Shown: positions 11,760 through 50,102 of the stretch, one piece after another | How the letters are laid out: every line of letters begins with the position of its first letter | Position numbering within the stretch: the stretch's first letter is position 1 | DNA from: Takakia lepidozioides | Taxonomy: Eukaryota; Plantae; Bryophyta | Assembly: GCA_030704615.1 (NCBI GenBank) | Contig: CM060733.1 | Coordinates: 57,908,001 to 57,972,000 of the forward strand | Direction of reading: 5' to 3' | Length of the DNA stretch: 64,000 nt | The notes under the pieces: generated by a model | What the model saw: the letters and a program-made list of their open reading frames with translations, nothing else | What the model was told of the DNA's origin: nothing | Databases searched by the model: none | Program-made: the position numbers and the translations under genes

Positions 11760-12200
11760 AGCCCAATAACTAGGCCTCAGGAGGGCCTGGGCTTTTGGCT
11801 CAGCCTTGAGACTTTCAAAGTTAGTAAACATAGGTACACGTACAATTCCCTTGATAGATTTGAAGAGAGCGTCTCTTTGGTGAGAGAACCCCGGACAGTG
11901 TATCAGAAAATGAGTATTGTCTTCAAATTGCCCACACAACGGGCAATTGTACTCTCCTCTTTTCCTCTCTGATTCTATTGCTGTTCAAAGGTAGGCTTCT
12001 TGCCCCGAGTTTTAATTTCAGACTAGTGCCGAGAGTGGGTAGACCCCACCCTTGAGGTCATCCAAGATGTCCTCCCCCATGTCACTGACTGGAAACAAGT
12101 TCAGGGAAGTTTTCTGCCTAACTTCATTTTCATTAGACAATGCAACAGACATGGCTTTGGACACTACCACCTCTAAGTCAATTTTATCAACCCATATTGC
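11760..12200 (-). mobile_element. LINE 3'-terminal coding fragment (zinc-knuckle CPLC..HFLIHC), copy 1
   Basis: High-identity reverse complement of 15120-15510 (CGQFEDNTHFLIHCPGFSHQRDALFK). Confidence 0.8.
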
Positions 12201-14193
12201 AGATCCGTACTTCAAGCAGGTCTATAATGCGACAAAACATGGTTTTCTAACCTCAGAGTTGACCCTCTGCAGAAAAATTTAAAAGAGAGAGGGAGAGGGA
12301 AGATATTCATGTCATGTCAAGACATGGACAAGACCACTAGGTCATTGTCAATTAAAGACATAAAAACAGCCCCCTGACATGTGGCACCATCTAACATTCT
12401 CCAGTCTTGTCATAACCACACCAAGTGACGCCACCCATTCAGTCTGATAAAACAAGGTGGGAGGGCGGGGTATGTTCATAATCAGATTCCTGTCATGTAC
12501 CCGAGTAACCCACTTGCACAATATAAGTCAGGTTGCAGCCTCAGATTACATCATCCATAGTAATCCATAAGATATGCACCATGCAAGATATCATGGGCAT
12601 ATAAGAGTATCTTGCCACATTACAGATCCAAGATATGTATACACAAGTACCTTGAGATGATCCAAGACAAGCATTATGCAAAGTAGGTAAGAACAGTCTG
12701 CCCTACAACACATTCAATGAGTGTTCACACCGGCAGTAGGAAGGACCAGCCTGCAATTAATTACACTTCGGGCCTGCCGCATGGTAAGCCATATTGCAGC
12801 TTCACATTTGGCCAAATGTAAGCACCCCAAAGCATGCATCGTGCAAGGCCTTCTGGGTATGTAAGAACAGCTTGTCATTGTATATATTCAGGACCTGTGC
12901 ACATAGGACTCTTGCTGCCCCAGCCTGCAGTAAATCAGACTCCAAACATGCAACCAAGTGATCACTTTGGGCATGACAAGACTGACTGCGACTTCATTCT
13001 ACATCATGTATAGTTGCCCCAAGATATACATCATGTAAGGCGTTTTGGCATGGAAGAAAGGCATGCCCTGTCACAACATCCAGATCTCGACACACATACA
13101 CTTTGAGTGCCCAAGACCAAGCCCACTTGGCCAAGATAAATCATACAATGCAGGTGGCTGTTCATATGGCAAAATAAAGTAAATAATCACTGCCAGAGTC
13201 CTTTAGAGCTTACCGTCACTGTTTCACAGGAGGCTAATGCCATGTTTTGCAAATAGAACCTCACTATGCTCCATTCCACAACAAATCCAGGTCTGAAAAC
13301 GGCCTGTCATTGCCTTATCAGGCTGTTTTCTTTAACAAACTGAGGTCTCCTCATCCTTAGAGCCAAACAGCCACTTATGACTTTTCCCTTACACCATCAA
13401 TCCTCTTTTAAGGCCAAAAAACAGGGGAACCTAGTCTAAAAATCCACAGGCAAAGCTGTCAAAGATTCAAGACAGGGTGGATTCACATGCAGTGCTGCAT
13501 GAGACAAAGCTGCCAGGCCGAAGTGCTCCATCAACAACAGCAAAAGATAAGTCAAAAGCAAGCATCATCATGTCAAACCGGGAGCAAGCGGGCCGAAATC
13601 GGGGCTGCAGGCAGCAGCAGTATATTCCTTTTGCACACATCCTTATCTGCAAGCTCAAGAGAATTCAAAGTAGGTAGGGATCCTCACCTGGTCCCATCAC
13701 AAGCCCCCACAAAAAACCAATGGGTTAGTGAGGATTGTGGAACCCAAGTGAATCACAGACCCCTACACTTGTTATCGATGTCAACTAAGAACCCCAAAAA
13801 CAAGAGAGAAAGATATGAAGTAAAAGGAACCCTAATCACCAAAAGCACCTTGAGCGATTGGGGAAGGTAACACTGCGCCATCGCCACCAACACGCCACCT
13901 CCAGCACAGCTAAGGAGAAGCGAAGCATACAAATGTTAGGTTTAAGAAGGGAGAGAGAGCGATATACTTCCCCACCCAAGTGCCGCTGCGAAACAAAAAA
14001 AGCCAGAGGAAGGAAAGGGACGATGTCATCACAACGGGTTCTCCCGCCTGTGAGAAGAGACAAGACGCCGCCATTGCGCATCCCCAGGAGCTCGTCCGGC
14101 ATGAAGCAGCAGACAGGGTAGCAACATAGCTCAGACGTCATAACTCGCGAGCTCAGCAACAACCGGAGTGCAGTTGACAGCGAGAGAGACACC

Positions 14194-14927: not shown

Positions 14928-15660
14928 TCAGATGGTGGGGTTAGCTGCAGTATATGTCCAACACCAGATATCCTAAGTTAATCAACTCTATATCTTGGAA
15001 ACAGGACCGCCCACCGACCTGTCAAACAGGCTAAGTCCTGGCAGAAGACAGTAGAAGAGATTCTCAAGGACCTGGATCTTCACCCTGCTGGATAAATCTG
15101 ACTTAGAGGCTGTAGTGTCCAACCATGTCTGTTGCCATGAGATTGTCTGATGAAAATGAAGTTAGGCAAAAAACTTCTCTGAACTTGTTTCCAGTCAGTG
15201 ACATGGGGGAGGACATCTTGGATGACCTCAAGGGTCTATCCACTATCGGCACTAGACTGAAATTTAAACTCAGGGCAGGAAGCCTACATTTAAACAACAA
15301 ACAGAAGCAGAGAGGAAAGGGAGAGTGCAATTGCCCGTTGTGTGGGCAATCTGAAGACAATACTCATTTTCTGATACACTGTCCGGGGTTCTCTCACCAA
15401 AGAGACGCTCTCTTCAAACCTATCAAGGGAATTGTGCATGTACCTCTGTTTACCAACTTTGAAAGTCTCAAGGCTGATCCAAAAGCCCAGCCCCTTCTGA
15501 GGCCTAGTTTTTGGGCATCTCACACACAGCAGATTGATGTTTGTGTGAAGGGATTTGTAGAGGATATCTGAAAAACCCGGATTAATTCTATATGTGAAGG
15601 TAAGTCTTACTACCAACGTCAGCCGCTGATAGAGGTAGGATCTGTCCCTTTTGTTTCCCC
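14928..15660 (+). mobile_element. LINE 3'-terminal coding fragment, copy 2
   Basis: ORF 15125-15571 reads TRLKFKLRAGSL..CPLCGQSEDNTHFLIHC, a CCHC knuckle typical of non-LTR C-termini. Confidence 0.75.
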
Positions 15661-17349: not shown

Positions 17350-18000
17350 TGACCTGGAATCCCACCCTCCCGCCCTGTTTTTTCAGAGACCCTGAAATGT
17401 AATTGGGTATTCAAATGAGATTGTAAACATGAAAGAGAATGTTAGATGGTGCCCTGTAAAGGGCTGTTTTGTCTTTCAATGACAATGACCTTAGCAGTCT
17501 TGTCCATGTCTTGACATGACATGTATATCTTCCCTCTCTTCTGTGCTGCTCTCTTTTAAGCTCCTGACACCCTAAATTCAAGATCAGATGGTGGGTTCAG
17601 CTGCAACATATGTCCAACACCAGATATCCTAAGTTAATCGACTCTATATCTTGAAACAGGACCGCCCTGTCAAACAGGGTAGGCCCTGGGAGAATAGAGT
17701 AAAAGAGATTCTCAAGGATCTGAATCTGGACCCGCAAATCTTGACCTTGCTCGATAAACCTGACTTAGAGAGTGTAGTGTCCAAAGCCATGTCTGTTACC
17801 AGAAAATTGTCCGATGAAAATGAAGTTAGGAAGAAAACTTCCCTGAACCTGTTTCCAGTCTGTGACATGGGGGAAGACATCATGGATGCGCTCAAGGGTC
17901 TATCCCACTCTTGGCACCAGACCTAAATTTAAACTCAAGGCAGGAAGACTACCTTTGAACAATAAACATAAATAGAGAGGAAAAGGGGAGTGCAATTTCC
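17350..18000 (+). mobile_element. LINE 3' fragment copy 3 plus upstream flank, inverted relative to 11940-12470
   Basis: 17585-18000 matches 14928-15330, and 17430-17560 is the reverse complement of 12280-12400. Confidence 0.75.
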
Positions 18001-19847
18001 CTGACGTACCTCTGCTGTTGCGGCTGCTGGTGCTTGAAGCGAGCTGGCGCGGCCAGCTGCTGCGGTGCTGTCGCGGCTACCAGCGGCACGGGCCCCCGCT
18101 GCTGCAGGGCGTCTCTCCCCGCTCACCACGGCTCTCTCTCTCTCTCTTCAGCTCGTTAGGTCGCGCCTCTGCGTGGCGTTCCTACCACACAGGGGAGAGA
18201 GACATCAGCCCGTGCTTAGGGCAAGAAAGCAAGACAGAAAGTGAGGGAGGAGGCGGTGCTTACCTTGGGCGTTGGAGCGGCATTGGGGCAAACTCCTTGG
18301 GGCCTTGCGACCACCTCGGGCTCATCAGCAGGTGCGTTTCTCCTCCACCCTAAACCCCACTCTCTGAACTACCTCTCTCCCAAAGAACAAACGAAAACGG
18401 GAGGGGAAAAAGATGTTGAAAGCACTTAGGGAAAAAAAAAAAACGCGGCGCCTACGTGCGACGCTCGGCCGTCGCACGCATGCGCCCGCCCTTTTTTTGA
18501 AATGTAAAAATGAAATTTGCGGCGGCTGGCCGTCGTTTCTTGCGACCCCCGGCCCCATAAATATAAAAACATGTCGCCCCCCGCGACGGCTGTCCGTCGC
18601 GGGGTGCGACCCCCAGGTAAAAAATTGAAAAAAAACTCGTCGTCAAATGCGACGCGAGGGTGTCGCAAGAGGCGACGGCCGACCTTTTTGGGTTTAGTTT
18701 TTATTTTTTATTTTTTATTTTTCATATGGTACTGGGTTAGGGTGTTTGCTTTTCTTTATGGTGCTGGGTTTTGGATTGGCGGTTTTGGTTGTGGATCTTG
18801 GGTTAAAATGATAAACGGTATAATTAGGATTCACGTACCCAAAATGTGGTTCAATCTGATAATCGCAAAGCGCTGGGTCTCAACAAATTTTTCCATGGTG
18901 TGGGCATCATGAAGGTAGAACGAGAGGAAGAATTTATTGTCTTGGCTCTAGCACCATAGGGATTGCTCCGCCTTTGGTTACCAATTTTGAAAGCCCCGAG
19001 ACTGAGGCATAGGGTTTTTTTGCCAACGATTTTTGAGAAATGAAAGTGTTGGTGGTGTGTGTTAATTAGGATGGGATGGTGAGGAAACATCGACCCGTCT
19101 CCCTCGAGGATGGGGAGGTAGTACCACATATCGATTGTGGTCCTAGAGCGACCATTTTTCGTGGCGAGGAGCCACCCATTGCATCTGATCCAATACAAGC
19201 TGCTGGGCACAATCGTAGAAGGGACCGGGGCCAAATTTCAGGTGATGCGGAGGATGTTGACACTCCGGGATCGAGTCGGGCGCGCCGCGGGTTGCTCCCT
19301 CGCGGGCCACCCCGTCCAACCACGTCCACCTTTGACACCCCCCCCCCCCCCCCCCGACATGATTGAGTGTTGGTGCACTAAGTGTTGGGAACAGATACCG
19401 CCGGGCGGCACCAGACCACCGAGGTGGCGACCGCATGTTGTCGAAAAACATTACAAGAAGAACAAGATTGCGGATGCGGCAAAGGTGAGTGTTTTTCCCA
19501 CCCCTCTCATTAATATTCATTTAAGGTACATTTAGGTTTATCTAATAATATAGTATGATTGGTAAGCATACATGAATTGAAATTACGACATAAGTATTGT
19601 TGCGTCGTTCACTACGCACATTGCAGCCATGACTTGATGCCGAAGCTCGCAATCACATTGCACAGGAGGCATTTCGCACCGGAATTTGTGCCAGAGCATG
19701 TGCCCGATGTGACCAGTTGGTTCCTCCAGCAGCACGTAGATGAGATGCGTAGGGTCGAGGGGTATTGTAGGTGTCGTAGGCATTATGGCCAGCGACGAGC
19801 AGGCCCACCCCGCCCCCCTCTAGTTTCCTCAAGCGATCCCCCTGATT

Positions 19848-20756
19848 GTGGCCTACCCCCCCCCCGGGTCTGTTTCTTTGCCTGATCCGGACGTTGTACC
19901 CGCGGCTGCACCTCCGACATTACATCCTCAACCACCTCCACTTTCATCTCCTCCGCTAGCAGTACCACCTCCACCTCCACCTCCACGTGCATGTGCCCCT
20001 CGAACCCCTAGGAGGGGTCGGCTTCGCCCTAGGTTACCCATTCGGCTTGGGTGGCCTCAGCCAGATCCTCGCCCCCGATGGGAAGCGCATAGGACTATGT
20101 TATTGAGGACCGTCCAGCCTCGTTGTTGGGGGAATCATCTCGACCCTCCCACCCCCATCCGAGAAAATGTGGAGTTCGAGTATTGGGGGAGACGGTATGT
20201 TGTGAGAACCGCTACAGACCCTGCTATGGGTCGGGGTTTATTCACGGTCAATGATATTGTGGTTCCTCCTCGGAGAAACAGCATGGTGAACTTGTTTCCC
20301 TACTACGGTCCATACTACACCTCCGCGGAGTTCTGTACATTATGCCTCGAAGCCCCATACATCCTACCCTACATTTTGTGTGTCAACAGACATGATGTAC
20401 GTAGACGGGGGTTGTCTCCCATTGAGATCAGATTTTGTGATGGTGACCCCGACATCTTCGGCAATGTTGCCCTGTTGGTCAATAGTTCTTTTGGTCATCC
20501 TAGGAGAACCAATGTAGTATGGGATGAGCTAAGCGATGGGCATGAGAGCTTTTGTGGTCATACGTCAGTATACTGTGAGGGGATGCACATGTTTGTGATG
20601 ACATGTGCTAGTAGGACTATTAGGGCTGACAGCGACCTATTTGCATCATACGAGTTTTCCCGGGATGATTGGGACCTCCGATTACAGCGTGAGTGGGATG
20701 TGTATGATAGAAATAGGGTTCCTTTGAGACAGGGATCGCAGAGAGGGGCATGGTAG
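19848..20756 (+). CDS. Pro-rich linker plus SET-domain protein inside CACTA (probably an exon of a spliced gene)
   Basis: GRGLFTVNDI..PYYGPYY..Y..CDGDPDIFGNVALLVNSS..N..ASRTIRADSDLFASY follows the SET pattern GxGLFA..Y.G..D...GN.ARFINHS..N..A.R.I..GEEL..DY. Confidence 0.7.
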   Translation: MAYPPPGSVSLPDPDVVPAAAPPTLHPQPPPLSSPPLAVPPPPPPPRACAPRTPRRGRLRPRLPIRLGWPQPDPRPRWEAHRTMLLRTVQPRCWGNHLDPPTPIRENVEFEYWGRRYVVRTATDPAMGRGLFTVNDIVVPPRRNSMVNLFPYYGPYYTSAEFCTLCLEAPYILPYILCVNRHDVRRRGLSPIEIRFCDGDPDIFGNVALLVNSSFGHPRRTNVVWDELSDGHESFCGHTSVYCEGMHMFVMTCASRTIRADSDLFASYEFSRDDWDLRLQREWDVYDRNRVPLRQGSQRGAW

Positions 20757-23700
20757 ATATTCTCATGATGTACTTTGTATACATCCGATTAATCGATTGA
20801 TGTAAAATTTTTTCTTGTTGCTCGTGTGGGTTGCATCTTTGCATATGTGATCTAAACATACTTATGCACATGTGGACCAAATATGAGCTTGAACCAAGTT
20901 GATTCAATGGGTCATTCTAGTGTTGAACGCAGCTACGTGTCATAGAGACGGAAAATTGTGTTTCGCCTGCAGATGATTTTTTTTTTATTCCATTTTAAGC
21001 CATATGCTTAATGATAGCATATGCAATGTGCGTGCAAAATTTGGGAGTATACAAAAGTCATTTGGACCCATAACCAGATTTTGTTCTCTCATTTGCACTC
21101 CAAAGTTGAGTTATCTTCAACTTCATGCACTCTTCATAGAGAATTCTGCAAAAGTGACCCTAGAAACACACTTATTTTTTTTCCACTTTTTTTGTGTCTC
21201 ATTTTTTGCATGGATGTAGTGGTGCAAAGCCCGATGTCACAGAACAAAATAGAGCTAAAATAAATCATTACGCCCCTCAAAACTGCAATCATATATTTTC
21301 TAAATGCAATTTATTATTATTATTTTAAATTCATTTAAATTCGATTTAATTCAAAATTGGTGCAAGGGTGAGTGCGTCGTTGGGGGAGGTTTTTTTTTTT
21401 TTTTTTTTTTTTTTTCGTTTTTCCCTTCTGCTGGATCTTTGTACAAGTGTGCACACATATTTAAGCACATGTAGGAAAAATGAAGCTTGAGCCACATCCG
21501 TTTGTTGGGTGCAATGGCATGAGAGAATTTTCTTTCACATTAATAAACAAAAATTGATTGATAGGGTGAACGCGTCATTGGGGGGGGCAAATGATTTTGT
21601 TTGGGTTTGAAACTTTGCATGTGTGTACATGCGCACATACATGTAATTATTGAATGACTTTTTTGATGCACACACACATTGAAGGTTGTTGTTTGCATTT
21701 CGCTTATAATATATGTCCATATGTTCATTTGTTCGTATCAGGACTTTGTCCATCCCTTCCCGGTCTTTTATCTTGGCACCCCATCCGAAAACAACCCAAG
21801 TACATCAGGCGGGAGCCGTGGGCGAGACGCCGCCCCCACGATACCGGACGATGATGACGATGACAGTGATAGTGACAGTGACAACAACAATGAGCATGGA
21901 ATTAACCAGGAGGATGTGCAAGCCATGGAGGATCTCTTAATGCATCATGTGGGCGCTGATGCATCCCATGAAGAGGGAATCCGGCCAATCGATAATCCTG
22001 AAATGGCCCCCTCAAATGACATGGAGAGGGAGGCGAGAACTCCCTTGTACGAAAAGGCGAAAGTGAGTCGACTTTCAACAATCTTACTTTTGCTCAATTT
22101 TCAAATTCGATTTGGCATAAGTAATGTTGGGATGTCTGCCATAATGCGAACTATTGCAGACTATATCCTTGCTCCACACTTGAAACCCCAAGATGTCACG
22201 GTTGCCGAAAGAGGCGCGCGGAAGTCTTGGACTCTGTGGGGATGGGCTATAAGATTTTTCATGCATGTCCATGTGATAAAACCCTATACTACGGAGAGGA
22301 TTTGTATCTCACCAAGTGCCCAAAGTGCAAGAAAGACCGATATCGGGATGATGTCCAAGGGAAAAAAGTACCACGCAAGATATAAGCGTCATTCCCCCTC
22401 GCAGATTACTTTCTTTAATCTTCTCAATGTATGTAAAGTGTATTCCACAAAGTTTAGGGTTTAGAGAGTAATACTCATACAAGATCTGATTGTGGTTTTG
22501 GAAGGAATGAGTGAGGAGTGGAAGGAGCGACGTTCGGTTTTGACCATTCATACCCAGGCTGCCAATGTGCCAGATGAGTGTACTCATTTCATGTTTATTA
22601 TTGTCTTAGACTTTACATTAAACTTTTGATCTCTGACGCAATTCAGATGCAAGATTGATGAGTGACATAATCATGGAGTAAGACGTGTAATTCATTTTGT
22701 AGTATAATTTGCATATTGGTGGAGCATTGAAACAATGATATGAATGTCTCATAGGAAAAAAACAAGTGGCAAACATGGACACGTACTTGCGACCTCTTGT
22801 TGAGCTATGGAGGGGGGTCCCGACATTGGATGCTTCACTTGACCCTATGGCTGGACAATCTTTTCAGATGAGGCATCTTGCTTTGGACAATGCATGATTA
22901 TCCAGGTATATTATGTTCCCCATGAACAACCCGCGTACATTCACTTGTCAATGTCGGATAATATCGATGATGATTGGGATTGATTGAAGTAGCGGCGACA
23001 GTCTTGTGCACCGTAGTGGGGTAGATGGCATTATGGGCCATGCACATGACAACTTTTTGTTTTTGCTAATGTGGCGGGATGTGTAGTACATGACTAACTG
23101 TTTGCTCGGGGCTAAGCACCAAATAGTACCATGCATGCTTGCATTGTGGCGATGATCTTGATGCACATAGCTCCCGTCATCTTCACAAGATGATGTATCC
23201 CAACTACCGCAAATTTCTTCCTATGAGCCATCGATAGAGAAGAAGAGAGAAACACTTGTTTGATGGCAAAGAGGATGAAGTGGACGTGTCCGGCATGAAA
23301 CGACTTTCAATCTTCTACGAGTTGCCATATTGGGGGGTACATATTCCACAAAAACACCGTCAATATCCCTATGCATGCATGTGATACATTTGGTATGCGT
23401 TGCATTGTCACTTTCACGTAAATTTTTTTGTGTAAGTCTTTGTGGGTGGGGATATATATAGGACCTGAAGATTCGCCATCTTCTAGATCCCATGCATATT
23501 GAGAAGAATGTATGCTCGTGCTTTGTCAATCATTAATGCATCCCATTAACGAGTGCATACTTAATTTAGGGTTCGTGTTAGACAGAGCTAGGTTAGGTCC
23601 CGAAGGCGCCGCCTAGCCCCGAGGGTGCTGCTAGTTTGGATTATAATTTTTCTATGTTATAAGTGTTTTGCGTCTGTAGTTTGTAACCAACAATTAGTAC

Positions 23701-24614
23701 TATCTCACTAACGTATTTACGGAAACAATAGTCCAGGAATAAGCAATGCGAATGTATAATTATCCTTGGTATAAAGGTTATGTTATTTTAGAGGAGGGAT
23801 ATTTAGTGTAAATATTAATTATTCAGCAAACAATAACAAATTAATTTCAATTAATCAACTTTAGTATTTTTATTTTATTTTGAATAACTTTATGTATATG
23901 TTCAAAGATAGAGATACGGATTTATTTAGTTCTTACTAGTACCCATTAATCTAGGTGAGTTAAGAATATAAAATTAATTAGATCATTTTGAGGAAGAGAT
24001 CAACCCAACCAACAATATTACTATAACCAAAATAAAAGAAGAGAATAAAACTAATTATAGAGAGCAGTGTGGCGGCTATTGGGATTTGAAATCCCAACCT
24101 CGACTGTGCAAGCAAAATTTCTAACTGGTAAGTCCCTCAAGTTATATTCAAGACCAACTTGTCTATTTAAGTACTTATAAAGCTATTACAAAGGTTTTTT
24201 TTATTACAAGAAGTATAAGCAAAAACTAACTCAATTTTAACAAGCGAGAGTTAATCCCTCAACCTTGGCGATGCAGCGAAGGTCCCTAACCAACAGACCA
24301 AGATGGATTTGTGAAGATACAAGCAGTAATTTAACTATTTAACATTCATTTCTAAGATCTATCCAAGGAATCTTTAAAAAAAACTAACTACAAGGAAATG
24401 ATGTAGGAATAGGGTTTGAACCTTTGACCTATGATGCACAAATAATTTCCTTAACCACTAAACCCAAGTACCGTTCTTGTGAAACTTGTAGTGTATTAAC
24501 TCTTTTAAACTGTTGTTTCACAACTTCCAGTGATTAACGTTTCTATCAGCAGATCGTTTCACGAACCTTCGGTCTTCTTCTTGAAATTCTAGCATTCCTT
24601 CGTTCAGTCCCGAT

Positions 24615-24900
24615 GATGCTACTACCCTCTTCACGGTATATTTACAAGCATTTCCACTACACATAGAGTACACTGATCGCTGGTCCTTCAAATCAGATGC
24701 TACTACCCTCTTCACGGTATGTTTACAAGCATTTCCACTACACATAGAGTACACTGATCGCTGGTCCTTCAAATCAGATGCTACTACCCTCTTCACGGTA
24801 TGTTTACAAGCATTTCCACTACACATAGAGTAACACTGATCGCTAGTCCTTCAAATCAGATGCTCCCGCTTCACCGTGTATGTATAAGCACTTCAACTAC
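24615..24900. repeat. 81-bp tandem repeat, 3 copies plus a partial fourth
   Basis: gatgct(actaccctcttcacggtat..) starts at 24615, 24696, 24777 and 24859. Confidence 0.95.
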
Positions 24901-24968
24901 ACCTTCTACAATCTATGACAACCTCTTTCCTGAACTATTGCAAGGCAGACACTCAAGCTACTACTGAT

Positions 24969-25026
24969 AAGAGAGAGAGAGAGAGAGAGAGAGAGTGAGA
25001 GAGAGAGAGCGAGAAAGCGAGAGAGA
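24969..25026. repeat. (GA)n microsatellite
   Basis: Direct reading of the sequence. Confidence 0.9.
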
Positions 25027-25639
25027 CTAGAATGTGAGAGACTAGAATGTCACGTTCTCTCTTTCGCCGGCTGATTTATATCAGTCCGTCGCCCTACATC
25101 CGTCACTTATTTTGACCACTTTCATCCATCCTTTAAAAAAAATAAAAGTGCATTTAAGCACCGACACCTAGTTAGAGTTTTTAATTAATTTTCCCTAGAG
25201 TGTTCATTAATATAAGATATAATCTTTCTTTGTTTTAATCCTTCAGATCTGCGCCCTCCACCTGAACGGACCAGATCGAACCACGTGTTTTTCCTCCATC
25301 CATTGTCATCTGTCCAAAAATCCAGTCAATAATCCATTCATCCATGGTTCCATCCGCTGATTTCATCCATTTTCATCCTTCCTCATAATTTTCATCCATC
25401 TGTAACTTTCATTCCTCCAGGGACATGACCAACTTAAATTGATACATGAACCGTTTTAAATCCTCATGAATGTTGCTCCTCACCCATGTCATTCATCCAT
25501 TTGGGAAGTGGGGATTGCTACCATTGATCAACCAATATCCAACGGTTCACATTTATCTTGTTTTCCCATTAGCTCCCTTTCCCTGCTATGTTGAGATCGG
25601 GGAGAGGTTCCCATGCTTGAAGTAGCGAATTGTAGCATT

Positions 25640-26208
25640 GTTCTGAGAGTCGTCTGCTGGTGAAATCCTCCAGCAAGATAAGCATATTTTCCTGCATTTG
25701 CTAACTTACAAAGACATCGATCATGAATCATTCTTGGCGCTGAAGACTATTCATGGATTTCTAGATCATACCTCCATACCATGTAATCTCTAGAGTATTG
25801 TCCGCAAACCAAAAGCTGAGTTCTTGTAACTGCCGACTCTTTGTCAGAAACTTCAAAGGTATAATCCACAGGGCAGCCTGGCAGACAACGCCAACGCCAA
25901 CGCCAACACGTACTAACGGAATCAAACGCCCACCACTTTCGTGTACTTATGTGAGGCTGTACATTGTGTGCAGGACCAGCCAACATGTAAACCCATTCCT
26001 CCTTGATCTTTACCCGTTTGTGAGTCTCAAGGACGTCGATGCGGCCTTCGTCATCAACCACCGCTAGCGCATTCTGCCATTCCTTACAACCACCTGTCAA
26101 CGGTAAATAATAAGATTGAGGCACCCGTGCAACGCATTCTAGTGTCACATGGTCTGTCAATCCCGGAATCAAGGAGTTGTCCTTCGATTGGTCCTCTGTC
26201 TTTGCCAT
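25640..26208 (-). pseudogene. F-box/Kelch-repeat gene fragment (SKIP11-like)
   Basis: LIPGL..TLECVARVP (F-box)..EEWVY..WWAFD..SDKES..LLVCG..VWRYD, an in-frame TAG, then RC..AGKYAYLAGG (Kelch). Decays after the first repeats. Confidence 0.8.
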
Positions 26209-28459
26209 TGCTAGAATTCTATTTTATTTATGATTTCTTAATATGATTTCATACTAAACTTCATAAAATATATACTAATGTACATCAAATGTGCTATTCT
26301 AAATTATGATCCGAAAAAAGTGATCGACATCCTTTTTTCGGGTTCTTCATGGCACGCCTGTGAAGAAGGGAGTGGCTGCAAAAGGAGATTCTCTCAGTGT
26401 TAGAAAGGAGCTTGAGGAGCAGGGTCACATGCGCCATCTATGGGCCGAACAAAATGGTGTGGACCCAAAGGGTGTTGTACGGTGGAAGTATAGGTGCGCA
26501 CCTTGGCAATGGACAAAGGAGGAATACAAGAAAGTGATAGCCACCATAAGTGTTGTCCGAACACCAACTGGTTATGGGTCATCCCTCCGTATGAAGTTCA
26601 GCGAAGAAGACGGGGTCCATGGTTTGAAGCCTCATGACTACCACAATCTATTGCAAGACATCTTGCCCATTGCAGTACGTGGGACATTGACTCCCGAGGT
26701 TCGTGAGACAATCTATAGATTGGGAGGCTTGTTCTGGTGGATTTGCTCAAAAGAGTTGGAAGAAGCAGATTTTCCACGCATGAAGAAGGAGGCGGCGGAG
26801 GTAATGTATATGTTGGAGATGCACCTTCCTCCCTCTTTCTTTGACATCCAAATGCATTTGGTAGTGCACTTAGTGGAAGAGGCTTCGATTGCTGGCCCCG
26901 TTCATTCTCGGTGGATGTACTTCCTTGAGCGTTATATGAAAAAGGATTTGTAAGACAAATGGCGCACCCGGAGGGTAGCATGGCGGAGGGGTATACGTTG
27001 CAAGAAGCTATGTTCTATTGCACGGAGTACATGGCAAGGGTGGATATGGAAGGAAGAGGAGGATGCACGAACCAAGGACATCGTTTTACCCAAAAAATTG
27101 AAGAGGGTAAAATTGTCGACCTTGGTGATTGAGCAAGCGCATGACTTTATACCGAAGAACACCCCATCCATACATGAGTGAGAGACAAAGATACAATAAT
27201 CTTGTTCAGCAACAAGAGGAGGAGACGTTTGCATGGAGGCGGAACCATCTAAGGCCGGTTACTAGACGCCCACGACAAGGAGCGAGCCGCCGGAATGTTC
27301 CTTCACAAAAATTGCCCATGGAATTGCAGCCTCTAAGTTCATTCCAACAGTGGCTTTGGACTACAGTTTATGACGTCGTTGCTCAAGGAGAGGTGGTTTC
27401 AGATTTGGTGCAAGACATTGCAAGGGGCCCCTCTCAATTCGCGACCTCATACACGACAGTTTGGGTTCACGGTCGTCATTTTCGCATTCGTGCTCTTGAC
27501 ATGAAGCGCAAAAAACAACCTTTGATTCTGGCTTGTGTGCCATATATTGGCAAGACTCCATGTGGGGCAAGGGAGATACACGACCTGCTATGAGCAAACT
27601 TGAGTACATTGGAGAGCTTGAGAGCATACTCCAACTTCAGTATACAAGGTATCGACCTCTTCTCTTCAAGGGAAGGTGGTTCCAGCCACATCTTGTGGGG
27701 CCTCCGCAACACTAGTGCAAGATGATTGTGGTTTCATGCGCGTCAATGCAGATAGGCTCAACCCTACTCATCGTCCCTCCGATGAGCCTTATTCACGGCC
27801 TTCAGACATGGAGCAAGTTTTCTTCTCCGATGACAAAACAAGAGGGGGAATTGGAAAGTGGTTATGCATGCTCAGCCAAGATGAAGACGTATCTATCATG
27901 GTCTCGGATCTCCATGGGGTGAGGCAATTGCGGTGGACTGAGAGACTGGTCATAATGATGCTGATGATGGAGGTTGGGTAGAGGGGGTAGAAGAGGATGA
28001 TGACGCCCCGGACAATGCATCCTGGACCCTATATGATGAAGCTCTAGAAGATATGGATGTTGGAGAAGGAGACGAAGACACGGCCATTGACAACGAGGTA
28101 GAGGATGATTCGGCGGTGCCTTTTGAGGGCCAGGCCATTTATGACGATGACTCCGATGACCAAGAAGACTTGCAGCTTGATGAGGATGAAGAGGCTCCGG
28201 ATGATGATGATGTTGAGGTTGATTAGACACAAAATCAAAGCTACATAACAATTCTCGCACCGAACTGGACCCATCCCTTCGATTGATTGTACATGTACAT
28301 ACATATTGTACTTTATTTCTATGATTGATCAAATATGGCTGTGGCTGGTAGTCTTTCAAGAAAGAAGACAGAGGCAATGAATATGTTGGAGCAACACATA
28401 CAGATGTGGTATCAAGAGAATTATCAAAATGAATGTCTGGCTCTGCAACGTCACTAAAT

Positions 28460-28908
28460 ATTATCCATATATTGAATGCCAAATACAAAATACCATTGTT
28501 CATACCCTCGGGCCCCCAAGCAGACTACAAATACTGTCAAGCAGTTATTACCACATGCAGGTAGCTCTGTGTCTATAACTGAGACAACACCCCCTCCCAA
28601 GCAACTGCCCTGCTACGACACACATCAGTTCTGTAGGCCACAGATTCCTTATATCCAAGGGTACCTCACATTACAACACAACCAATGTGAACTAACCCCT
28701 CCTGCAACACTTAAAATAAGTACCTACCCTCTGAGGAAAAACCAAGAAGGCAGCTTGGTCTTGGCCATGCTGATGCTAACCATCACACACTGCCCCCTCA
28801 TGTCCATTTCCAAAATCTATCCATATACACACTGCCGCCACAGTTTGACATTCAACAAGAGTTCATACCAAATAAAATAGGGCACTGAATATTGCTCATG
28901 CGCTGCAA

Positions 28909-28944
<36 letters not shown>

Positions 28945-31900
28945 AATACACAGATCCAAGTTAATTCCACTATACTATGCCCGACACCAAAGTATCCAGC
29001 AAGATCCCCCTTACTATTCACCCTGACTAGCACCTCCGACTACACAGCGCTAGCAAAACCTAGCCACATTATATCTAACACTAGCCCGCAGGGTCTTGGC
29101 AAGCCATAACACAAGCAGCTATGCTCACCAAAACTCTGCCCCCGAGATAACATCGCTACCATCCCTCACAGACCCATGCTGGCTATAAGTATCATTCCAC
29201 CCTTACTGAACACAGAGAGCTATTTATGGCTGTATAATATAAACGCTACATACCCTGCTTCACGCTGCACGAGGCAGTCAAGGACATTAAAAGTTACAAC
29301 CACATAAAGCACCCCACAACAATCAGCTTGTATACTTATGCTCCACACCCTCACCATTCTCAAAACTCATTCCTGAATACCAAACCACCACAAAGTGTCA
29401 AGCAGCAGATACTAACACCAATTAAATTATGGCCTCACACTACCACTAAACACCCCCCAAACTGCTCGACTCAAATAAATATCACCAAATTGCTCACATC
29501 CTATCATTATCTCCCTCTATGCTATAAAAGAAATTTAGTGCAAGGCACTCTAGTGACAAATAAAAATGTGCAACCAATGAACATCAAAAACCAATATGGC
29601 TAGCAATCATACACACGCCAAACATTCGCAATTGCCCCACTGTAATAGAAAACAAATGCCCCCACAGCTCCATAAAATTGTTAAGACTGAACCTGTGGGT
29701 CAGCTAACCTCTCACCCTTACACTACACACAGGTTTTTGGCACGCACTATTACTACCAAAATCAAGCACATAACAATCCAACTGCTAAACCTTTGCCCAA
29801 AAATATTTGGGCACATATTAAAGCAGCCAGATCCACATGGACAGCCTTACTGTGAGTTACATCTGATACCTAATCCATGCATTGCCCCACAAGAGACTGC
29901 CCGCATAATCACCACCTCATACAATCCTTGGCTACAGAATAAAGCATCTAGCTCCCCTCAGCAAACCAACCTCATCATACAAGCAAATGCCTATATACCC
30001 CCTATGTCCAAAATCTACACATACATGAATACGCCCTTATCAAGTATCCAATCAATTAACACCAAAGCCTATAAACACACGAAAGTCAATTTCTCCTTTG
30101 TAACAGAGCCCATGAACAGTCTACTCGGCATATTGGCTTACCCCCACCAGCATTATAGACTCCACAAGCTCGCACCTGCCATCCCACACCCCCCAAACAT
30201 GCACCTATTCCCCACCACTACCGTAAAAACTCAAAAAGTATACTACTGCCAACCCCCTCCAAAAATGCTGAATTCCACTCATTTTGAATCACATCAATAC
30301 TACCATCATACTGTGACTCGTCCTCCCGTAGCATTGGGCCACTGGACCCACATAACCAAAACCCCTGCCCACAACGATCTGATCTCTTCTTCCAACCTCT
30401 CTACATCAATATCACAAACCTATGACCAGCCCCTTAAAATACCCCAAACAGACATACACATTGACCAACCATCGCTGCAAGGATTGCAAATATGTAGAAT
30501 TACTTTACACGTTGACCAACCACAAATCATACTAAAAAAACAACCAAGATACAGAAAACACGAGCTTGCCATACTCGTCTACCATCAAGAAAATACCAGC
30601 AACCCTGGTACAAGCCACGCTCACATATATCCTACCGCTGGGCCATTACAGAGGCTTCTGTCAGCAGGGAAATGGCCCAAAATACAACGTACACATTTGT
30701 CCCGCTGGTGCTCACAAGGATATTATACTATGCATGCCACAAAGAATAGATACGACGTACAAGCTGCTCACAAGGCTGGATATCAGCCTATATTCTCATT
30801 CAAATTCGCTCTCTCACAAGCAAATTAGAAAGGCCGTCCACTGTAGTTGCCACTCATGCCCCACATTCAGATTGCACCCCCCCACCAGATGGCTTCACAG
30901 AAATCAATCGGTCTCCTTAACAGCCCATCACATTATATGCTCTGGCCATGCCAATAGCCCACGATACATAAACCAAGCTGCGAGCCCTGGCTATTTCTCA
31001 ACTACCACGGTACAAGGCAAGTCCTTCAAACGAACCCACAGGATCACAACTCTTGCGCTTGACCTGCGACACATACATAAGCCCTGTGGCACGAATCCTC
31101 GAAACACACTACATATACACTTGGTTACGCATATGCCTCTCTTCCCAATGTGCTATGCGCATGATCAGAAATGGTACATCTATCGTGCTCAATCGTTTGA
31201 TATGCCGAGATTCCCATGTGAATGCCCTCTAACACTCCCCCTTCCTCTGCAGCCCAACACACAGGTGAGCACAGACGGAAGAAGCCACACACTCAGCAAA
31301 CAGTCCCCGCGTAAATTAAAAACAAAATGATTATAAATATAAATATAAATGTAATATCACGTTTTTTACGCTCTATGAACCCCTCCCCGCTGGCAAATGA
31401 CCACACCCCGCTCAAATCACACTTTACACTTCATAATTACTCTACACCATGCCTCAAACGCCTTATATACACAACTACACTCACACTAACTGTACCTAGT
31501 AAATATAATTTAGCCTCAAATTATAACCCCCTATATCTGCTGCCACCATTTAATTGCTACAGAATCACCCAGCTAAGCTATTCAGAACAGCCCCTTTACA
31601 ATAGTCTAAAAACGCCACCAAATATCGTTTGGCCGTCAAAATTAATGCAAACCATTGCTCGCCCAACACTATTAATAACTGCGTCTTCCACCAACTACAC
31701 CATACTCAATGTATCACAAATGCCAAAAAATATCCATTCACTTAGAGCCACACACCCATCAATACAACATCGAAACCTTTCTACAACGCTTTTTAGTAAT
31801 CGCCCTCCACACATATACGAACATCCACCTTCACAATAGTCTAAAAACACTAGATCCTCACCCCAATATTCCTCCACAACCTCTCTTGCTATCTGAGCCA

Positions 31901-34900
31901 ATCCCACATCTCTCCCACTCCTCATTGCCATGCCAATCCTTTAACTACACCATCGGTGCAACATCCTACGATAATTTCCATCATAGACATGGCATTTGGG
32001 GGAGACCGAGGACAACATACAATCACCGTCAAAGAAAAACATTCCACAAACATATTTATTTTTTATTCAACAAGCCACAACAAATCCCACAAATACCCTC
32101 AGGCAGACTGTATTATGCTCCAAAAATCTCCAAACAAGCTAGACGCAAAACTGCAAAAATGGATGCACATCCACAAACACGCGCAACTTCATCTAATGCT
32201 CATGCGATGTGGGGACATCTACCAGAACCCGGGCCCCTGAAACAACCACCATCATACCCAACAGAACACACATAATCCAATACAAACTGTTGTAAATCAT
32301 CTCCCTAAGGCGGCAAAAGCTAGGTACACTTTATACTTTTATCCCGACACAATCTCTCTAAAATTGGAGTACATTCATCTACACAACCTTTTCAATCCAT
32401 ATCTACCCAAAACCACTTATGTTTTGGATCCGGACGCCCTAGAAGCGCCGCCATATGGTATAACCACCTCTGAGTACCCAATCCTTGCCCATAATAGCTA
32501 CAAACTGCGATCCCACTCTATAGATCATGTACTATTTGTATACATTATTTGTATATCTCCAAAGCCTAAATCTTGTAATATCATGTTATCCGAAAGCTTG
32601 GAGACCCGAATAATAACCACGCTAACAAAACTCCAAGGGTTACCACATAACTCCTCCCACTACAAAGCCCAACTGCACCCACTCAATTTTGTTCAAGATT
32701 CCCTTCACCTTCTTCAAGCCCCACCGGGCCATATACACCAGCTACTTACGACATATATCAAATCTCTACCTCCAACAGTCCACCCTACTATTCAGGATAT
32801 TTCTACAGCATTTCCTTTCATCTCGCATGACATTTTATCTGCCACGCTAAATACCCTTACATATCTACCCGATTACCAAACGACCAACCACACACCACAG
32901 TGTGACAATGCAGTGCCCACTGTACACCAACCTACACCACCGCCACTCTCTTATACCCCAGACAACCCACAAGACAACCTTATAGACCAACCCTTAATAT
33001 GCCTTACGTGGAATGTGGGATCCATTGCCTCCAGCTTGCCAACCCTTTCACTTATTCTTCAAAACTCAAACCCTCCCCATATTATTCTACTCCAAGAAAC
33101 CAATCTCAACTCACACTCGCCCAACACATATATCAACAAAATACTGCTTGACCACCACATCATCTATGGGAGCCCCCCATCGCCAGGAAAATATAATAGA
33201 CGACGCTCACTACCATATCAGCCGGCTCGTGGAGGCCTAGCCATTGGTATACATAAATCCATGCACTCACGAGAAACAACTACAAATGCCCACATCCCTA
33301 CGCACCTTAAAACTCACCTCCAAATTGTTGAGATTCACCTCAGCCCTTATCCAAAACTACTTATCATTCATTTATATATGCCCTCACACCCGGACGATAT
33401 AGCCCTTACCCCCAATATTCTACAACAAATTGTGAGCTTTGCTAACAACCCACTCCATTCCTTATCCGCAATCCTCCTTGCAGGTGACTTCAACAGAGAC
33501 TTATCTATGCTGGGCAGATTACATGACGGTGTACATTTCCCTCCCTCTCCAAAAGACATACAATGGACAACCTTTACCCAAACGCATGGATTCCAATACA
33601 TCACTACAAACCAGGCTTTCTCTAGGCAAGGAGGACTAAACTATACCTCGCATAGCCTCATTGATGGGTACTACCTCAAAATGCCTAGAAATAATCCCAC
33701 ACAGCTGTATAGTACAATCCTGTATGATCCCATATATAACTCTGACCATTACCCAGTTATTCTCCGCATCCCCGCGCATATAGTACCTATAGGTCCAGTC
33801 CTAAATGGCCCCTCGCTAGACACAAGGCCACGTATTCCCACTCCTATTCCCCCCTCCTCTATTCTGGCATTCCAAACCAAGTTTCAATCCATTTCCGGTA
33901 CAGTTATATCTGATTTTGAAACAATACTAGATCGATATTCAGCAAACCCCACCCTTCAAATTTGGGAAGATGCAAGCTCCAAGCTAGAACAAATATTCAC
34001 TCAAATTACAGAATCCACGCTACATACATGCACAAAGTTCCCCGATCCAGTACAAACTGAACGATAAAAAATAAACGGAGGATACTTGACAAGAACACAA
34101 CAGAGAAAATGGCAAACACAATTAATAATCCACCACAAAATCCGCAAAGCATTACAATCCTCTCATCTGACCCACGAGACCCCCAATGGAGAAATACCCC
34201 ATCTATTGTAGACCTAAACACAATAGTAGCTTGCAGCACAGATTTCCCGATACCCCAAAATGATGCAAACATACATACATGGCTCATATCTCTATCCCGA
34301 ATTGGTCGAGATGAAAAAAAAACACTTACAATATCACCAAACAACAATCCAAAGACAACCAGAAGAAATTTGTTCAATCATATTGTAAGATGCTACAAGA
34401 CAAGCCTCGCCTCATATATAAATCAATCTTCAACCCTTCCCCCTCTCTTCTTTTGGATGCGATATGAGACAACGCAGGAACTCTACACACATCTCCAGCC
34501 TCTATCAATAAAATCGTCTTCCAGCAAGCTAAGACCACATACCAACCACAAGCACATGCATGTTTCCAGCCATCGCATCACATACAACACTGTGCATGCC
34601 AAGCCAGACATTATCATTGGCATGATATGGACGGATTTAAACTCGAGCGAAGGGGACCCTTACAACTCGACCTAAGCGCTTACCTCACCCCAGAGGTCTA
34701 TCATTCATGCCTCAAATCTCTTTCCAACTCCAAAGCGCCAGGCCCAGACAACATACCTAATGAAATACTCAAGGCATTGGACCCACACTTCCATCGATTA
34801 ATTCATCGCTTCTTTGTGATGTGCTATCAGCTCCATAGAATTCCCAAAGGCTGGAAAAACAATCGTACAATACTAATTTACAAAAAAGATGACCCTACCC

Positions 34901-37900
34901 AATTAGGCAACTACAGACCTATAGCTCTTGCTAACACCCTTTACAAGCTATTTACTAGCACGTTGACCACCCTTCTCACATCCTTCGGAGAACAACATCA
35001 TATTCTTAGTGACTCGCAAGAGGGATTTTGAACTGCCAGAAGCACAAGCCGGCAAATCCAACTCATTATTTCGGCCTTAGAAGATGCACGTTTTACTCAA
35101 CAAGACATATTTTTGCTATACATTGACTTTAAAAATGCATTTGGCTCAATTGACCATGCGCGTCTACTAGCCGTCATGATTGATCTAGGATACCCGTAAG
35201 ACGCAGTCATGCTCATTGACAATATTTATATTGAAGCCACCACCACATACTTCGGGCCTTCATTTGGCAATACATCACCTATACCAATTCACAGAGGTAC
35301 CATACAAGGGGACACACTTAGCCCATATATTTTTATTGTCTTTCTAGAACCCCTACTTCACTGGCTCGCTTGAGGTAACATAGGATACCAATATATTACG
35401 TCTCCCAATAACATCCCAGCAGTTGCCTATGCAGATGATCTTGTACTACTATCCAACAAATCCAGTCATTTCAATCGACAAGTGAAAAAACTAGAAAGAT
35501 TCAATAAATGGGCAACAATGGAACTAAGTTTACATAAATGTGCTATCACGGCGATCAGCCATCATACCAAACACAACACACAAGCCCTCTCAAGAATACT
35601 AAATAACATGGTGCTATATAATACCCAACCCTTCCCATATTTGGACCAAGACGACCCATATACATATTTGGGTATACAATTGACACCATCTCTTAAGTGG
35701 AGTGCTCAAAAAGACATAACCCAGAAAAAACTCATCTCATAAGCATCTGTCTTATTGAACTCGCCAGCCACAATGCGTCATAAATTATTTATTCTCGACA
35801 CAGTACTCAGAACTTCTATAGAATATCCTTTTCATGCAGCACCATTCTCTATCCCAGACATAAACGCACTGGATAGAATCATTATACGTTTATCGAAACA
35901 AATATGTGGACTCCCAAATAGCACCCCCAATGCACTAGTGCAGTTATCCAGGAGCCTCTATGGTATCGGTACTACAACTTTAGCTGAGGCCTACGCTAGA
36001 ACGTTGGGAACGCAGCTGCAAGAAGCTCTAAACGATGTTGGTAAACTGGGGAATATTTATCAAGAACTCCTTAAGCATGTTGCCTCGAAATTTGGTGGCT
36101 TAGCAAATTTACCGGCTATCAACCCCATTGCATGCACCCACTCCCATCACCAGACCCTCTTCATACTCAAACATATGCACATTACTCTGGACACTACTAT
36201 GCCCACAATCCAACTTCATTACACATCCCTAGAAAATGCTTGGGACACAAGCCCACAAATTCATCTCTTCAACCCAGACAACATACCTCGTAAACAAACC
36301 TCTGTAAAATTCTTTATGCAATTTAACATCACCACAGTCAGACAACTTACAGATGCTAATGGCACCAAACTTATTGACCCACATGCTTTTCGACTAAAAT
36401 ACCCTAAACCATCATCGCGCTCCCAACATGTTCATTTGCAACACCTCCAAACACTACTATGTTTTCCCACTCCTGCTTGTCTAACCCACACATATCCTTG
36501 ACAATGTAACTCTTCGCCCCATCACCCATGGGAGCTACTCCCTCGCTATTCATCGAAAAAGCAAATCCAATCACTATTCCATGGCTTCGCCCTAAACCCA
36601 ACAAGCGTCCACCCCACACAACCAGCTCAAACACCCAGCCACCACAACCAAATACTATATCGTCCCCACTTGCTATTCAACCCACAGGACACCCCGTAAC
36701 ACCCGCCCACACATTAGAGGAAATACAAGGCATAACTCAAAACATGTCCTTGGATCAATATGAAGCCACATGTGTCAAAACTCTATACAATTGTCAATGG
36801 AAGAGATCAGCCCCCAAACGTAACACCTGGGAAAACAATGACCAACTTTTTAGCATCCATGGTAACCCAAATCTACACCATAATATTCAAATGGTTACCG
36901 AATACCACCGATGAACCAACACCCACTACTTATCGCATATTCATACCCAACATGCGGATGAACCACAAGCCAACGATAGACGTTTCATCAGCCCGCCACG
37001 AAGTATCCCAAATCTACACATCTCTATAGCTGAATGTAACCCAGATAAAGACATCATGAAGTCCCAGGCCCACATTCACACTCACAATAACTTGGCATAC
37101 ATATATGGACCACTAGGGTATTACATTGGTAACATAACACTCCAAAGATTGGAGTGGTTATGGATTCAAAAGATTTCATTCCAACCCACTCCACCTCACA
37201 AACCTGCATACACCATCAGCATTTGCAGTACAAGTCTCCAGACTCATCCAACGCTACGCTCAAGACCTACCGCCCAAAACACCCACGACAACAAACAAAC
37301 TTTCACTTGCACACTCCCACTCGACCCTCCCCACACTCCTTCTAGACTTCCTCACCACGGAGCTGCAATTCACCCACTCATACTACTCTAACCCTCTCAC
37401 ATGCCCATTGGGTTTATCTACTTACTCGAGCTTACACAACATTGATCAGCACTTTGGATCCCTGGGGGCTGCAAGGTCCCACCAATGGCAAAGGCGAGGG
37501 TTTGCAACACCCCCTAATGTCGTCTTTGCCAGTGAAGCGCTTCATTGGGCGCGCATTGCTGCACATATGTCACCAGAATCATTCACCATTATTTGGTCAC
37601 ACAGCCACGGTTCACCCGCCTACCAAATTCCCAACAAATATCCCCGAAACAATCCGGACAAGCCATGGAGACATGTGACCCCTAGGCCTCTTTGGGCAGC
37701 GAGACCAAAAACCTTTGCTATACCACTCCCAGATTTCACGGAACCCACAACCTTAAAATTCCAACCACAGAATTGCATATATACTGATGGCTCTTTAAAA
37801 GATGCCCAAGCGGGTTATGGTATATATTTGGTTGGCACCAATACCAAAATATATAGCTGTCTCCCTGGTTGCCAGAATATCCTACGAGCGGAGCTTATGG

Positions 37901-38890
37901 CTATACATGATGTTCTCAAGTCTCTCCCCTACCAACCTACTTCAACATACTATTTACTTACAGACAACTTGGTCTCCCTATACCTTCTCACCAACCAAAT
38001 TTGCATGCCATCATCACAGATTCACCATCATGATATTACACTTATAAAAGGAATCGTCGATGTTGTATCATCTTTACCGCTGCAAATCCATATACACAAA
38101 GTTCGATCTCACACAGACATAATAGGTAATGATATAGCAGACCATCTTGCCCAACTTGGTGCTATTCAGCCAATCATCAACCCCTCGGCCAGCCCTATCC
38201 ACCGGTTGCACACATACCCGTTTTGGCTCATATCAACAAGGGCTAGATTCCCAACCATAGCACCTATACGGAATTTGCACACACACATTCAAGGCGAGAC
38301 CAAACTACTCATAAAAGAATCTCGCACCTACAGAAATTCGTACATATCTAAGTGGGTCTCGTCCCCACACCTGCTACATAGTATGTCCAATCATTTTTGG
38401 ACATCCCTTAGGGTTACCTATGCACAAATCAAACAAACTTTGAAATTTTGGTATGGTCAATACAGGGGCAATCAACGACAGAACTTGTTCTGGCCATTAT
38501 TATACCCCAATAAACACTGCGTGTTATGTTCATCCCAAAATCCCCAAATAGATACATGGCCACACTTACTTCTCTACCGCAACCATTCCATAATACATGG
38601 GTTGCGGGTAACCAGACATAACCAAGGGGTTAGACAACTCCACAAATTCTCACTTCACATCCGAAATCCAGATGGTTTAACCTCATCAATGCAGGCACAT
38701 TCCAAGGTCGCCCACCGGACCACACCATATCCCCATGGCTGCTACCGTGTATATGCTCTCAAGGACGCCCGTGCCTTTGTCTAGCAAGACTATGTCCTGA
38801 TATTTTGCTAGTCCAGGGACTTCTTATACAGGCATTGCCACCGACAAAACCGCTTCCATCTCTCAAAATATATTTTTTGGAATTTGCATT
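28460..38890 (+). mobile_element. Dualen/RandI-type LINE (APE + RT + RNase H + CCHC + RLE), decayed, 3' truncated; 5' boundary approximate
   Basis: C/A-rich leader. APE: LTWNV..LLQET..GGL..AGDFN..SDHYPV (33000-33770). RT: KAPGPD..NYRPIAL..DFKNAF..QGDTLSP..YADDL..YLG (34700-35700). RNase H: YTDGS..RAEL..TDN..KVRSH..GNDIAD (37775-38160). CVLC..H..RHN (38518-38622). PDILLV..LEF (38796-38885). Confidence 0.85.
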
Positions 38891-39495
38891 CTGATACACT
38901 GTCCGGGGTTCTCTCACCAAAGAGACGCTCTCTTCAAATCTATCAAGGGAATTGTGCCCCACGGATGTGAGCCGAGTTCGAGCTTTTATGGGGTTGACAA
39001 ACTATTATAGACGGTTTGTCAAGGGATTTAGTGCCATGCACGTACCCTGTCACACACCATGCATCTAGCCACGAAGTGTTACACCTCTGTATGCATACCA
39101 CGCCACCAATACTGCCCCTGCAGTAAACTGTGAGTGCGTCGCACTCCAAAATGCCCCAACTCCTCATGGGCATGCCGCACTAACTGTGCACACTGTACAC
39201 AACCGAATCCTCATGTATATCTTTGGTACCACCTGGCTCATCACTAGCCTCAGGGTCCTCAGACACTCCGTTTACACTCATCCTTGTTGTAGGTCCAACC
39301 TGACCTCCCGATGCCAAGATACACAAAAAGGCAGATCATTGTCATCCCGGCACCATCTCCTCATCCGTCTCACCATGCCACCGAGCTTCAGTGTCATCCT
39401 GCTGGCTCGTGCATGGATTGCAACTCAATCCATCCGCATCCCGATTGACCAAATCCGGTCGATGCACAACCTAAAAGTCATACTCGTAATGCTAA
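38890..39495. mobile_element. Patchwork of short TE fragments
   Basis: 38890-38955 matches the LINE fragment at 15370-15435. 38955-39035 (+) matches Gypsy RT 57660-57740. 39045-39490 (-) matches Gypsy RNase H/integrase at about 58060-58650. Confidence 0.8.
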
Positions 39496-49754: not shown

Positions 49755-50102
49755 TGTCATGGTTTTGTTTGTGATTAGTTAGAAATAGTTATTTCTAGCT
49801 AATTAGGACATTATACATTTATATTTGTATTTTGTTGGCATTGGAACTTCATTTAGTTCCATGTGTCAAGTGAGGTGGTGAACCTCACTTGGGACGTGAA
49901 GAGGTTATCTTCACGTGAGACGTAGGCAGACTCGTCTTCTACTAGTCGAGCCTCCCGAGGCCTCTCTCGCCGCCATAGCTCTAGTATTTGAGATGGAGAG
50001 TGGGTGAGATCTGTATGGTGGAGTTATTTAGCAAAAGTGCCATTGGCTTGACTTATATAACGTGATAGAGTGGTTTCTCCTCTTTTCACCATTTCCGTAT
50101 CA
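49755..50102 (+). repeat. Terminal repeat A1 (348 bp)
   Basis: About 16 mismatches by eye versus A2 (60115-60462), no indels. TATA-like ttatataa near its 3' end. Confidence 0.95.

Follow-up and report, generated by a model that had tools for sequence, protein, structure and literature searches.

A SET-fold exon of a non-flowering-plant CACTA lineage, in a probably dead copy from Takakia lepidozioides

What is a SET-like reading frame doing between the terminal repeats and the transposase gene of a plant DNA transposon? The question is raised by a 64,000-nucleotide stretch of the Takakia lepidozioides genome (contig CM060733.1, forward strand; hereafter the window), in which an initial annotation placed a lysine methyltransferase-like open reading frame inside a CACTA transposon and suggested that it encodes a chromatin modifier or anti-silencing factor. 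We find that the frame belongs to a real SET-fold exon of a non-flowering-plant CACTA lineage, in a copy of the element that is probably dead.

Position of the frame in a decayed CACTA/EnSpm element

The element that holds the frame is a decayed CACTA/EnSpm transposon, and its parts in the window were assigned as follows.

18423-18690, plus strand: probable 5' end of the element, with CACTTAGGG, an A12 run, and palindromic GCGAC/GTCGC subterminal-type repeats
19076-19484, plus strand: probable exon 1, with a low-complexity N-terminus, a C18 run, a CxCxxC...H finger, and a phase-0 donor (AAG/GTGAGT)
19485-19626, plus strand: probable intron (GT...TTGCAG) of 142 nt, GC 0.34 versus 0.58-0.59 on either side
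19627-19823, plus strand: probable start of the SET exon (linker), GC 0.58, with a stop at 19630 and frame changes
19824-20756, plus strand: stop-free frame of 310 codons, comprising a proline-rich linker, the SET domain, a short tail, and its own stop codon
20139-20660, plus strand: SET domain without a post-SET cysteine cluster, from homologues, the structure model, and Foldseek and VIA-align matches
20757-21741, plus strand: AT-rich spacer (985 nt, GC 0.35), probably the rest of the first TnpD intron, with acceptor ATCAG before 21742
21742-22379, plus strand: TnpD exon 2, encoding an acidic stretch, a helical motif, and a Cys cluster; it continues the frame of exon 1 and is frameshifted later
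22640-23530, plus strand: remains of the Transposase_21 core (PF02992), with stops and frame changes
26324-28226, plus strand: 3' part of TnpD (PF13960), with DUF4218 split over two frames and an acidic tail
62732-63092, minus strand: sister-element fragment covering only TnpD exon 2, 94.8% identical over 363 nt

The frame lies between the subterminal-type repeats (18435-18682) and the remains of TnpD on the same strand, in agreement with the initial annotation. The 5' end begins with CAC at 18423, and its palindromic repeats occur in both orientations and on the 5' side only; no other bin of the window is as dense in GCGAC/GTCGC as 18500-18750, with 8. Neither a 3' terminal repeat matching this end nor a target-site duplication of the element was found in the window, and because no partner end was found, the 5' terminus is given as probable. 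The repeats at 50848-51756 were considered as a CACTA 3' end and rejected, since they belong instead to an LTR retroelement (49755-60551; repeats at 49755-50102 and 60115-60462 ~95% identical), which holds 10-, 20-, and 67-bp tandem arrays there. A C-rich LINE-like element at 28470-39000, after TnpD, gave an endonuclease match (PF03372, E 3e-10) and weak reverse-transcriptase matches, and it may have cut off the CACTA 3' end. Upstream of the element are three non-LTR-type 3'-end fragments (11761-12401, 14928-15571, and 17435-18001; 81-89% identity), with one weak zf-RVT match (E 0.039) among them.

The TnpD domains PF02992 (E 1e-10) and PF13960 (E 3e-19) were recovered in pieces, and TnpD is broken, with in-frame stops and frame changes inside the Pfam matches. 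Positions 56-123 (E 0.012) and 134-194 (E 1e-10) of PF02992 were matched and positions 1-55 were unmatched, while positions 1-67 and 68-104 of PF13960 lie in different frames. TnpD exon 2 has one extra base at 22186 relative to the sister fragment, which itself carries an in-frame stop, and the exon ends in AAG followed by ATATAAG (22379-22385) where a GT donor is expected; a splice donor appears to have been lost at this site. The two TnpD halves are separated by ~2.7 kb of unrelated sequence. This insert (23530-26320) contains an 81-bp tandem array (24615-24864), an (AG)n tract, and, on the minus strand, a 158-aa frame (25747-26223) that by eye resembles a piece of a plant F-box/kelch gene; the frame matched nothing in Pfam or PDB.

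Within this setting, positions 19848-20756 (plus strand) encode 302 aa followed by TAG, and the motifs on which the SET call had been based, GRGLF (20229), LFPYYGPYY (20292; previously given as YxG), GNVALLVNSS (20460), and RTIRADSDLFASY (20613), were all located in the frame. The description of an uninterrupted 302-aa open reading frame holds from 19824 onwards, but the codon at 19848 is GTG, and the earliest in-frame ATG lies at 20097. A C10 run occurs inside the frame at 19856-19865. On base composition alone, the chance of 310 open codons is P ~3.5e-6; 6 of the 52 frames of at least 150 aa in this transposon-rich window exceed 310 codons.

The SET fold of the predicted protein

Direct searches with the window protein alone gave no Pfam match and no PDB match, and a word-based homologue search returned none among 47 candidates. 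A full HMMER scan with the same protein yielded 56 matches at E<=1e-3, of which 16 reached E<=1e-10 and the best had E 2e-17 and 40% identity. The family alignment comprises the window protein and 47 of these matches (48 members); left out were eight short or partial matches and one repeat protein (P0045), whose match was treated as chance. PF00856 was found at E<=0.1 in 34 of the 48 members (best 6.5e-9), the window protein not being among them, so the domain assignment of the initial annotation is carried by 34 of the 47 aligned homologues but not by the window protein itself. Three homologues (L001, P0058, and P0068) scored above the PF00856 cut-off of 22.4 bits, L001 with 26.7 bits. No methylase family was found in the window frame or in its homologues, and longer fused forms (878-2505 aa) were absent from 6993 candidates, which is weak evidence.

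Searched against PDB, the family profile had its best match in LegAS4/RomA (E 1.5e-5), with EZH2 and MLL domains weaker, and an Atlas search returned, at 0.95, two unnamed clusters and a SET cluster with PF00856 in 52% of its members. A single-sequence fold model was discarded (pLDDT 31.9); the alignment-based model of the window protein reached pLDDT 85.1 and pTM 0.79. With this model, Foldseek gave 133 matches at E<=0.001, and among the matches listed all were SET/PR proteins. The top VIA-align match was SET8 (Z 12.7, rmsd 2.4, 125 aligned), tied with Set1, PRDM3, PRDM5, and SET7/9. Homologues, model, Foldseek, and VIA-align thus agree, and the SET fold of the protein predicted from the window frame is settled, as the initial annotation had proposed.

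Relatives, splicing, and the state of this copy

How is the frame joined to the rest of the element? The CxCxxC...H finger of exon 1 (GC 0.59) starts at the ATG at 19359, just after the C18 run (19338-19355) with its likely frame change, and the phase-0 donor after 19484 is the only MAG/GTRAG site between 17 and 29 kb; the upstream exon proposed earlier (19339-19483) is therefore corrected at both ends. In frame with this finger exon, the acceptor before 21742 opens TnpD. No homologue matched the linker in tblastn searches, and for this reason we infer its true frame. The finger of the window was recovered by neither Pfam, nor Atlas, nor an HMM of four homologous fingers, and the CxCxxC pattern occurs 17 times across the six frames of the window. 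Within the spacer, the segment 21360-21600 also has a second donor-like site, which follows 21367, as well as a T26 run and, at ~21560, a near repeat.

The arrangement recurs in a relative. Two relatives, the short genomic loci L001 and L002, were found among 274 pattern matches. Genomic context for the family comes from these two loci and, indirectly, from gene models of Riccia. L001 has, in order, short terminal repeats, exon 1, a 144-nt phase-0 intron, and a SET exon with its own stop, followed after 189 nt by a phase-0 acceptor into an acidic exon; it ends before the transposase core. At ~30% protein identity, L001 has position and splice phases as in the window. Exon 1 of L001 matches PF13963 at E 5e-4, below the cut-off, and its third (acidic) exon, without a Pfam match, ends like the TnpD exon of the window by eye only. 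The SET-exon linker of L001 contains a TGA (1135-1137) where its close homologue P0047 has Arg, and thus L001 has decayed too. L002 has a 136-nt phase-0 intron ahead of its SET exon, and a finger precedes SET within one protein in the homologues P0005, P0013, and P0033. From the splice signals, the GC steps, and the layout of L001, one shared Cys/His-finger exon 1 is very likely spliced in phase 0 to either the SET exon or TnpD. The SET frame probably forms the last part of an alternative terminal exon within the first TnpD intron and is not a free-standing 302-aa gene.

Named sources among 20 clusters looked up were Riccia sorocarpa, with seven gene models in five clusters, as expected for a multicopy element, and Ginkgo biloba and Psilotum nudum, with one each. 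In the tree (48 rows), the window protein falls in a supported nine-row clade (95/87) with Psilotum and Ginkgo sequences. In Riccia, model P0029 continues past SET into a segment like the N-terminus of TnpD, and its C-terminus resembles TnpD exon 2 of the window (pairwise E 5e-6). In the Riccia models P0006, P0029, and P0058, SET is joined to an acidic TnpD-like segment and the terminal Tyr is dropped; these joins reflect either an artefact of gene prediction or a third isoform. Viral contigs yielded no relatives among 157 and 22 pattern matches, and prokaryote genomes none among 68; viral SET models match by fold only and so have no bearing on origin.

These relatives speak to whether the stretch is a piece of a host SET gene passively captured in the manner of Pack-CACTA, without any function for the element. 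CACTA elements often capture genes, and the same element holds the apparent host-gene piece at 25747-26223, kelch/F-box-like by eye only. We nevertheless consider passive capture highly improbable: position and splice phases recur in L001 at ~30% protein identity, the family is multicopy in Riccia and spans liverwort, fern, and gymnosperm, and no named host SET gene was present among the 20 clusters. At the family level, the L001 layout and the SET/TnpD-like join of Riccia P0029 likewise support the view that the frame is not a single-copy host fragment, the alternative named in the initial annotation.

Does the window copy still make the protein? The initial annotation noted that the frame had stayed open while TnpD broke. 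TnpD is indeed broken, and the SET frame has 930 open bases versus at most 637 nt in the TnpD pieces, but the contrast is modest, because TnpD is open for up to 637 nt and because of the six longer frames counted above, and the probable start of the SET exon carries a stop and frame changes. The Poisson probability of finding no defect in 0.66 kb is 0.02-0.14 at assumed rates of 3-6 per kb, a figure that serves as a guide only. Upstream of 19824 the frame is not uninterrupted: the best acceptor (19627) opens on CCA-TGA, in another frame, so that splicing there would give a single codon before a stop, and the linker continues in other frames until the C10 run. The homopolymer runs C18 and C10 may be assembly errors. 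In-frame alternative acceptors precede 19824 and 20061, the former T-poor (2 T in 20 nt) and unlike the other acceptors in T content.

The protein itself is divergent. Its residues W65F, G112L, G164D, and E166D were seen in none of the 47 homologues, it ranks third among 35 near-full rows in departures from conserved columns (8 of 33), and its leave-one-out score of 148 bits is seventh lowest of 43. Its branch (1.06) is twice the median, but similar to those of its clade-mates, and the window-specific residue changes may represent decay or subfamily drift. A copy still making SET protein under selection, either by splicing to 19824 (352 aa, starting at ATG 19359) or by starting at ATG 20097, would accord with the length of the open stretch, the in-frame acceptors, the retained core residues, and the branch length. 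It is nonetheless quite unlikely given the T-poor acceptor, the four substitutions, and the longer open frames in other decayed elements of the window. With four conserved residues differing from every homologue, selective preservation of this copy, as the initial annotation implied, is not supported, and the window copy likely no longer makes a SET protein.

Predicted catalysis and a possible role for the element

If intact members of the family do make the protein, would it be an enzyme? The canonical Arg and His of RxxNHS are both absent from the family: all of 46 homologues have Gly or Ala at the Arg position, and the His position is Ser in 45 of the 46 with a residue there (Ser or Asn in all 46) and His in none. 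In the window protein these two positions are Leu and Ser, and the G(D/E)E of the GEEL turn reads DSD. NSS is hence a family trait, and the NHS-to-NSS change that the initial annotation had ascribed to this copy, with a possible effect on its activity, is not one of its own. Other catalytic positions are conserved, with the GxG glycines kept in 45 and 46 of 47 homologues, the Asn of the NHS motif in 39 of 46, and the terminal Tyr in 36 of 38; the window protein retains G31, G33, Y55, N115, and Y171.

The missing Arg and His, together with the PR domains among the top structure matches, would suit a SET-fold protein without methyltransferase activity, kept by the element as a histone-tail reader, decoy, or scaffold. 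The retained GxG, Asn, and terminal Tyr argue against such a protein, as does the bacterial LegAS4/RomA. In its alignment to the family profile, Phe occupies the His position and Gln the Glu position, and yet this enzyme is reported to trimethylate H3K14 (PMC10653858). Loss of the His need not, therefore, abolish activity. We regard an inactive fold as unlikely, and the kept GxG, Asn, and terminal Tyr make it fairly likely that the family is catalytically active.

The target of such an enzyme is a separate matter. SET8, SET7/9, Set1, and LegAS4/RomA share with the family the SET fold, GxG, Asn, and terminal Tyr, but they are only 12-22% identical to it, and the family lacks the RxxNHS Arg or His; no SET subfamily stands out, and thus no substrate can be assigned. 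Nor can a substrate be read from the structure, because VIA-align matches for different marks were tied within 1 Z unit. An active enzyme might then write a repressive mark, as a form of self-restraint, or methylate a protein other than a histone, for instance TnpD or a host silencing factor. The closeness of SET8, Set1, SET7/9, EZH2, and SUVH6 (within ~1.5 Z units) is compatible with this, and SET proteins are described as methylating both histone and non-histone targets (PMC10653858). On the other side stand the plant accessory factors VANC and TnpA, which are reported to relieve silencing of plant DNA transposons (PMC12730594; 10.64898/2026.08.24.746577), although this is an argument by analogy only. 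A repressive or non-histone role seems to us rather unlikely.

We lean towards a decayed CACTA/EnSpm element whose SET stretch is a built-in alternative terminal exon in the first TnpD intron, and whose intact relatives would encode a methyltransferase acting on their own chromatin. The order of 5' subterminal repeats, SET-fold stretch, and TnpD is observed. Beyond this, one first exon with the Cys/His finger would be spliced in phase 0 to the SET exon or to TnpD, and intact family members would thereby produce a small active protein-lysine methyltransferase. The shared N-terminal finger could bring this enzyme to the element, where it might write a permissive histone mark and offset silencing, and the SET isoform would then fill the accessory slot held by TnpA in flowering plants. 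By analogy with En/Spm, we offer the finger-targeted permissive mark and the equivalence with TnpA as a tentative hypothesis.

SET cargo is not new to DNA transposons. HarbingerS and oomycete MuDR elements carry SET genes (cited in PMC12730594), and so does the PAG2 gene of red-algal Plavaka elements, members of the EnSpm/CACTA superfamily, with Helitrons also named (bioRxiv 10.1101/2025.02.11.637652). For land-plant CACTA elements, no paper on a SET exon was found in a search that Repbase Reports, subscription journals, and supplements, which may describe one, lay outside, and the consulted part of PMC11982613 contains nothing on a SET exon in CACTA. Like the window element, HarbingerS and oomycete MuDR have SET histone-methyltransferase cargo, but they belong to other superfamilies and hosts, and their SET is described as separate genes. 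Plavaka likewise combines a CACTA-superfamily transposon with SET and a proposed modulation of chromatin. PAG2, however, is a gene in its own right, with SET joined to an N6-adenine methylase, in a three-gene PAG1-3 cassette, whereas the SET of the window, compared by description, stands alone and is likely an alternative exon of a plant EnSpm TnpD gene.

The nearest parallel in gene organization is En/Spm, where one Spm gene yields TnpD and the anti-silencing TnpA by alternative splicing, as reported (10.64898/2026.08.24.746577), and one transcription unit giving a transposase and an accessory regulator is also what we predict here. TnpA is a DNA-binding factor causing hypomethylation, whereas the predicted accessory product of the window has an enzyme fold and, unlike in En/Spm, is encoded by an exon ahead of the transposase core. 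According to PMC13547354, domains resembling TnpA are confined to flowering plants. A speculative and doubtful extension is that CACTA elements of non-flowering land plants (liverworts, mosses, ferns, gymnosperms) make a histone methyltransferase of their own by alternative splicing of the transposase gene. Such an isoform would be targeted through the N-terminal finger held in common with the transposase, would write a protective mark on the element, and would be the enzymatic equivalent of TnpA.

The window copy contributes the clade that groups with fern and Ginkgo sequences and is itself a poor subject for experiments. The known plant anti-silencing factors VANC and TnpA are DNA-binding proteins. 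A transposon-encoded writer of histone marks, tied to the transposase by splicing, would, if true, be a different strategy, and tractable liverworts and mosses allow this idea to be tested. The family also suggests that some gene models annotated as "SET domain-containing", seven of them in Riccia, are transposon exons and not host genes.
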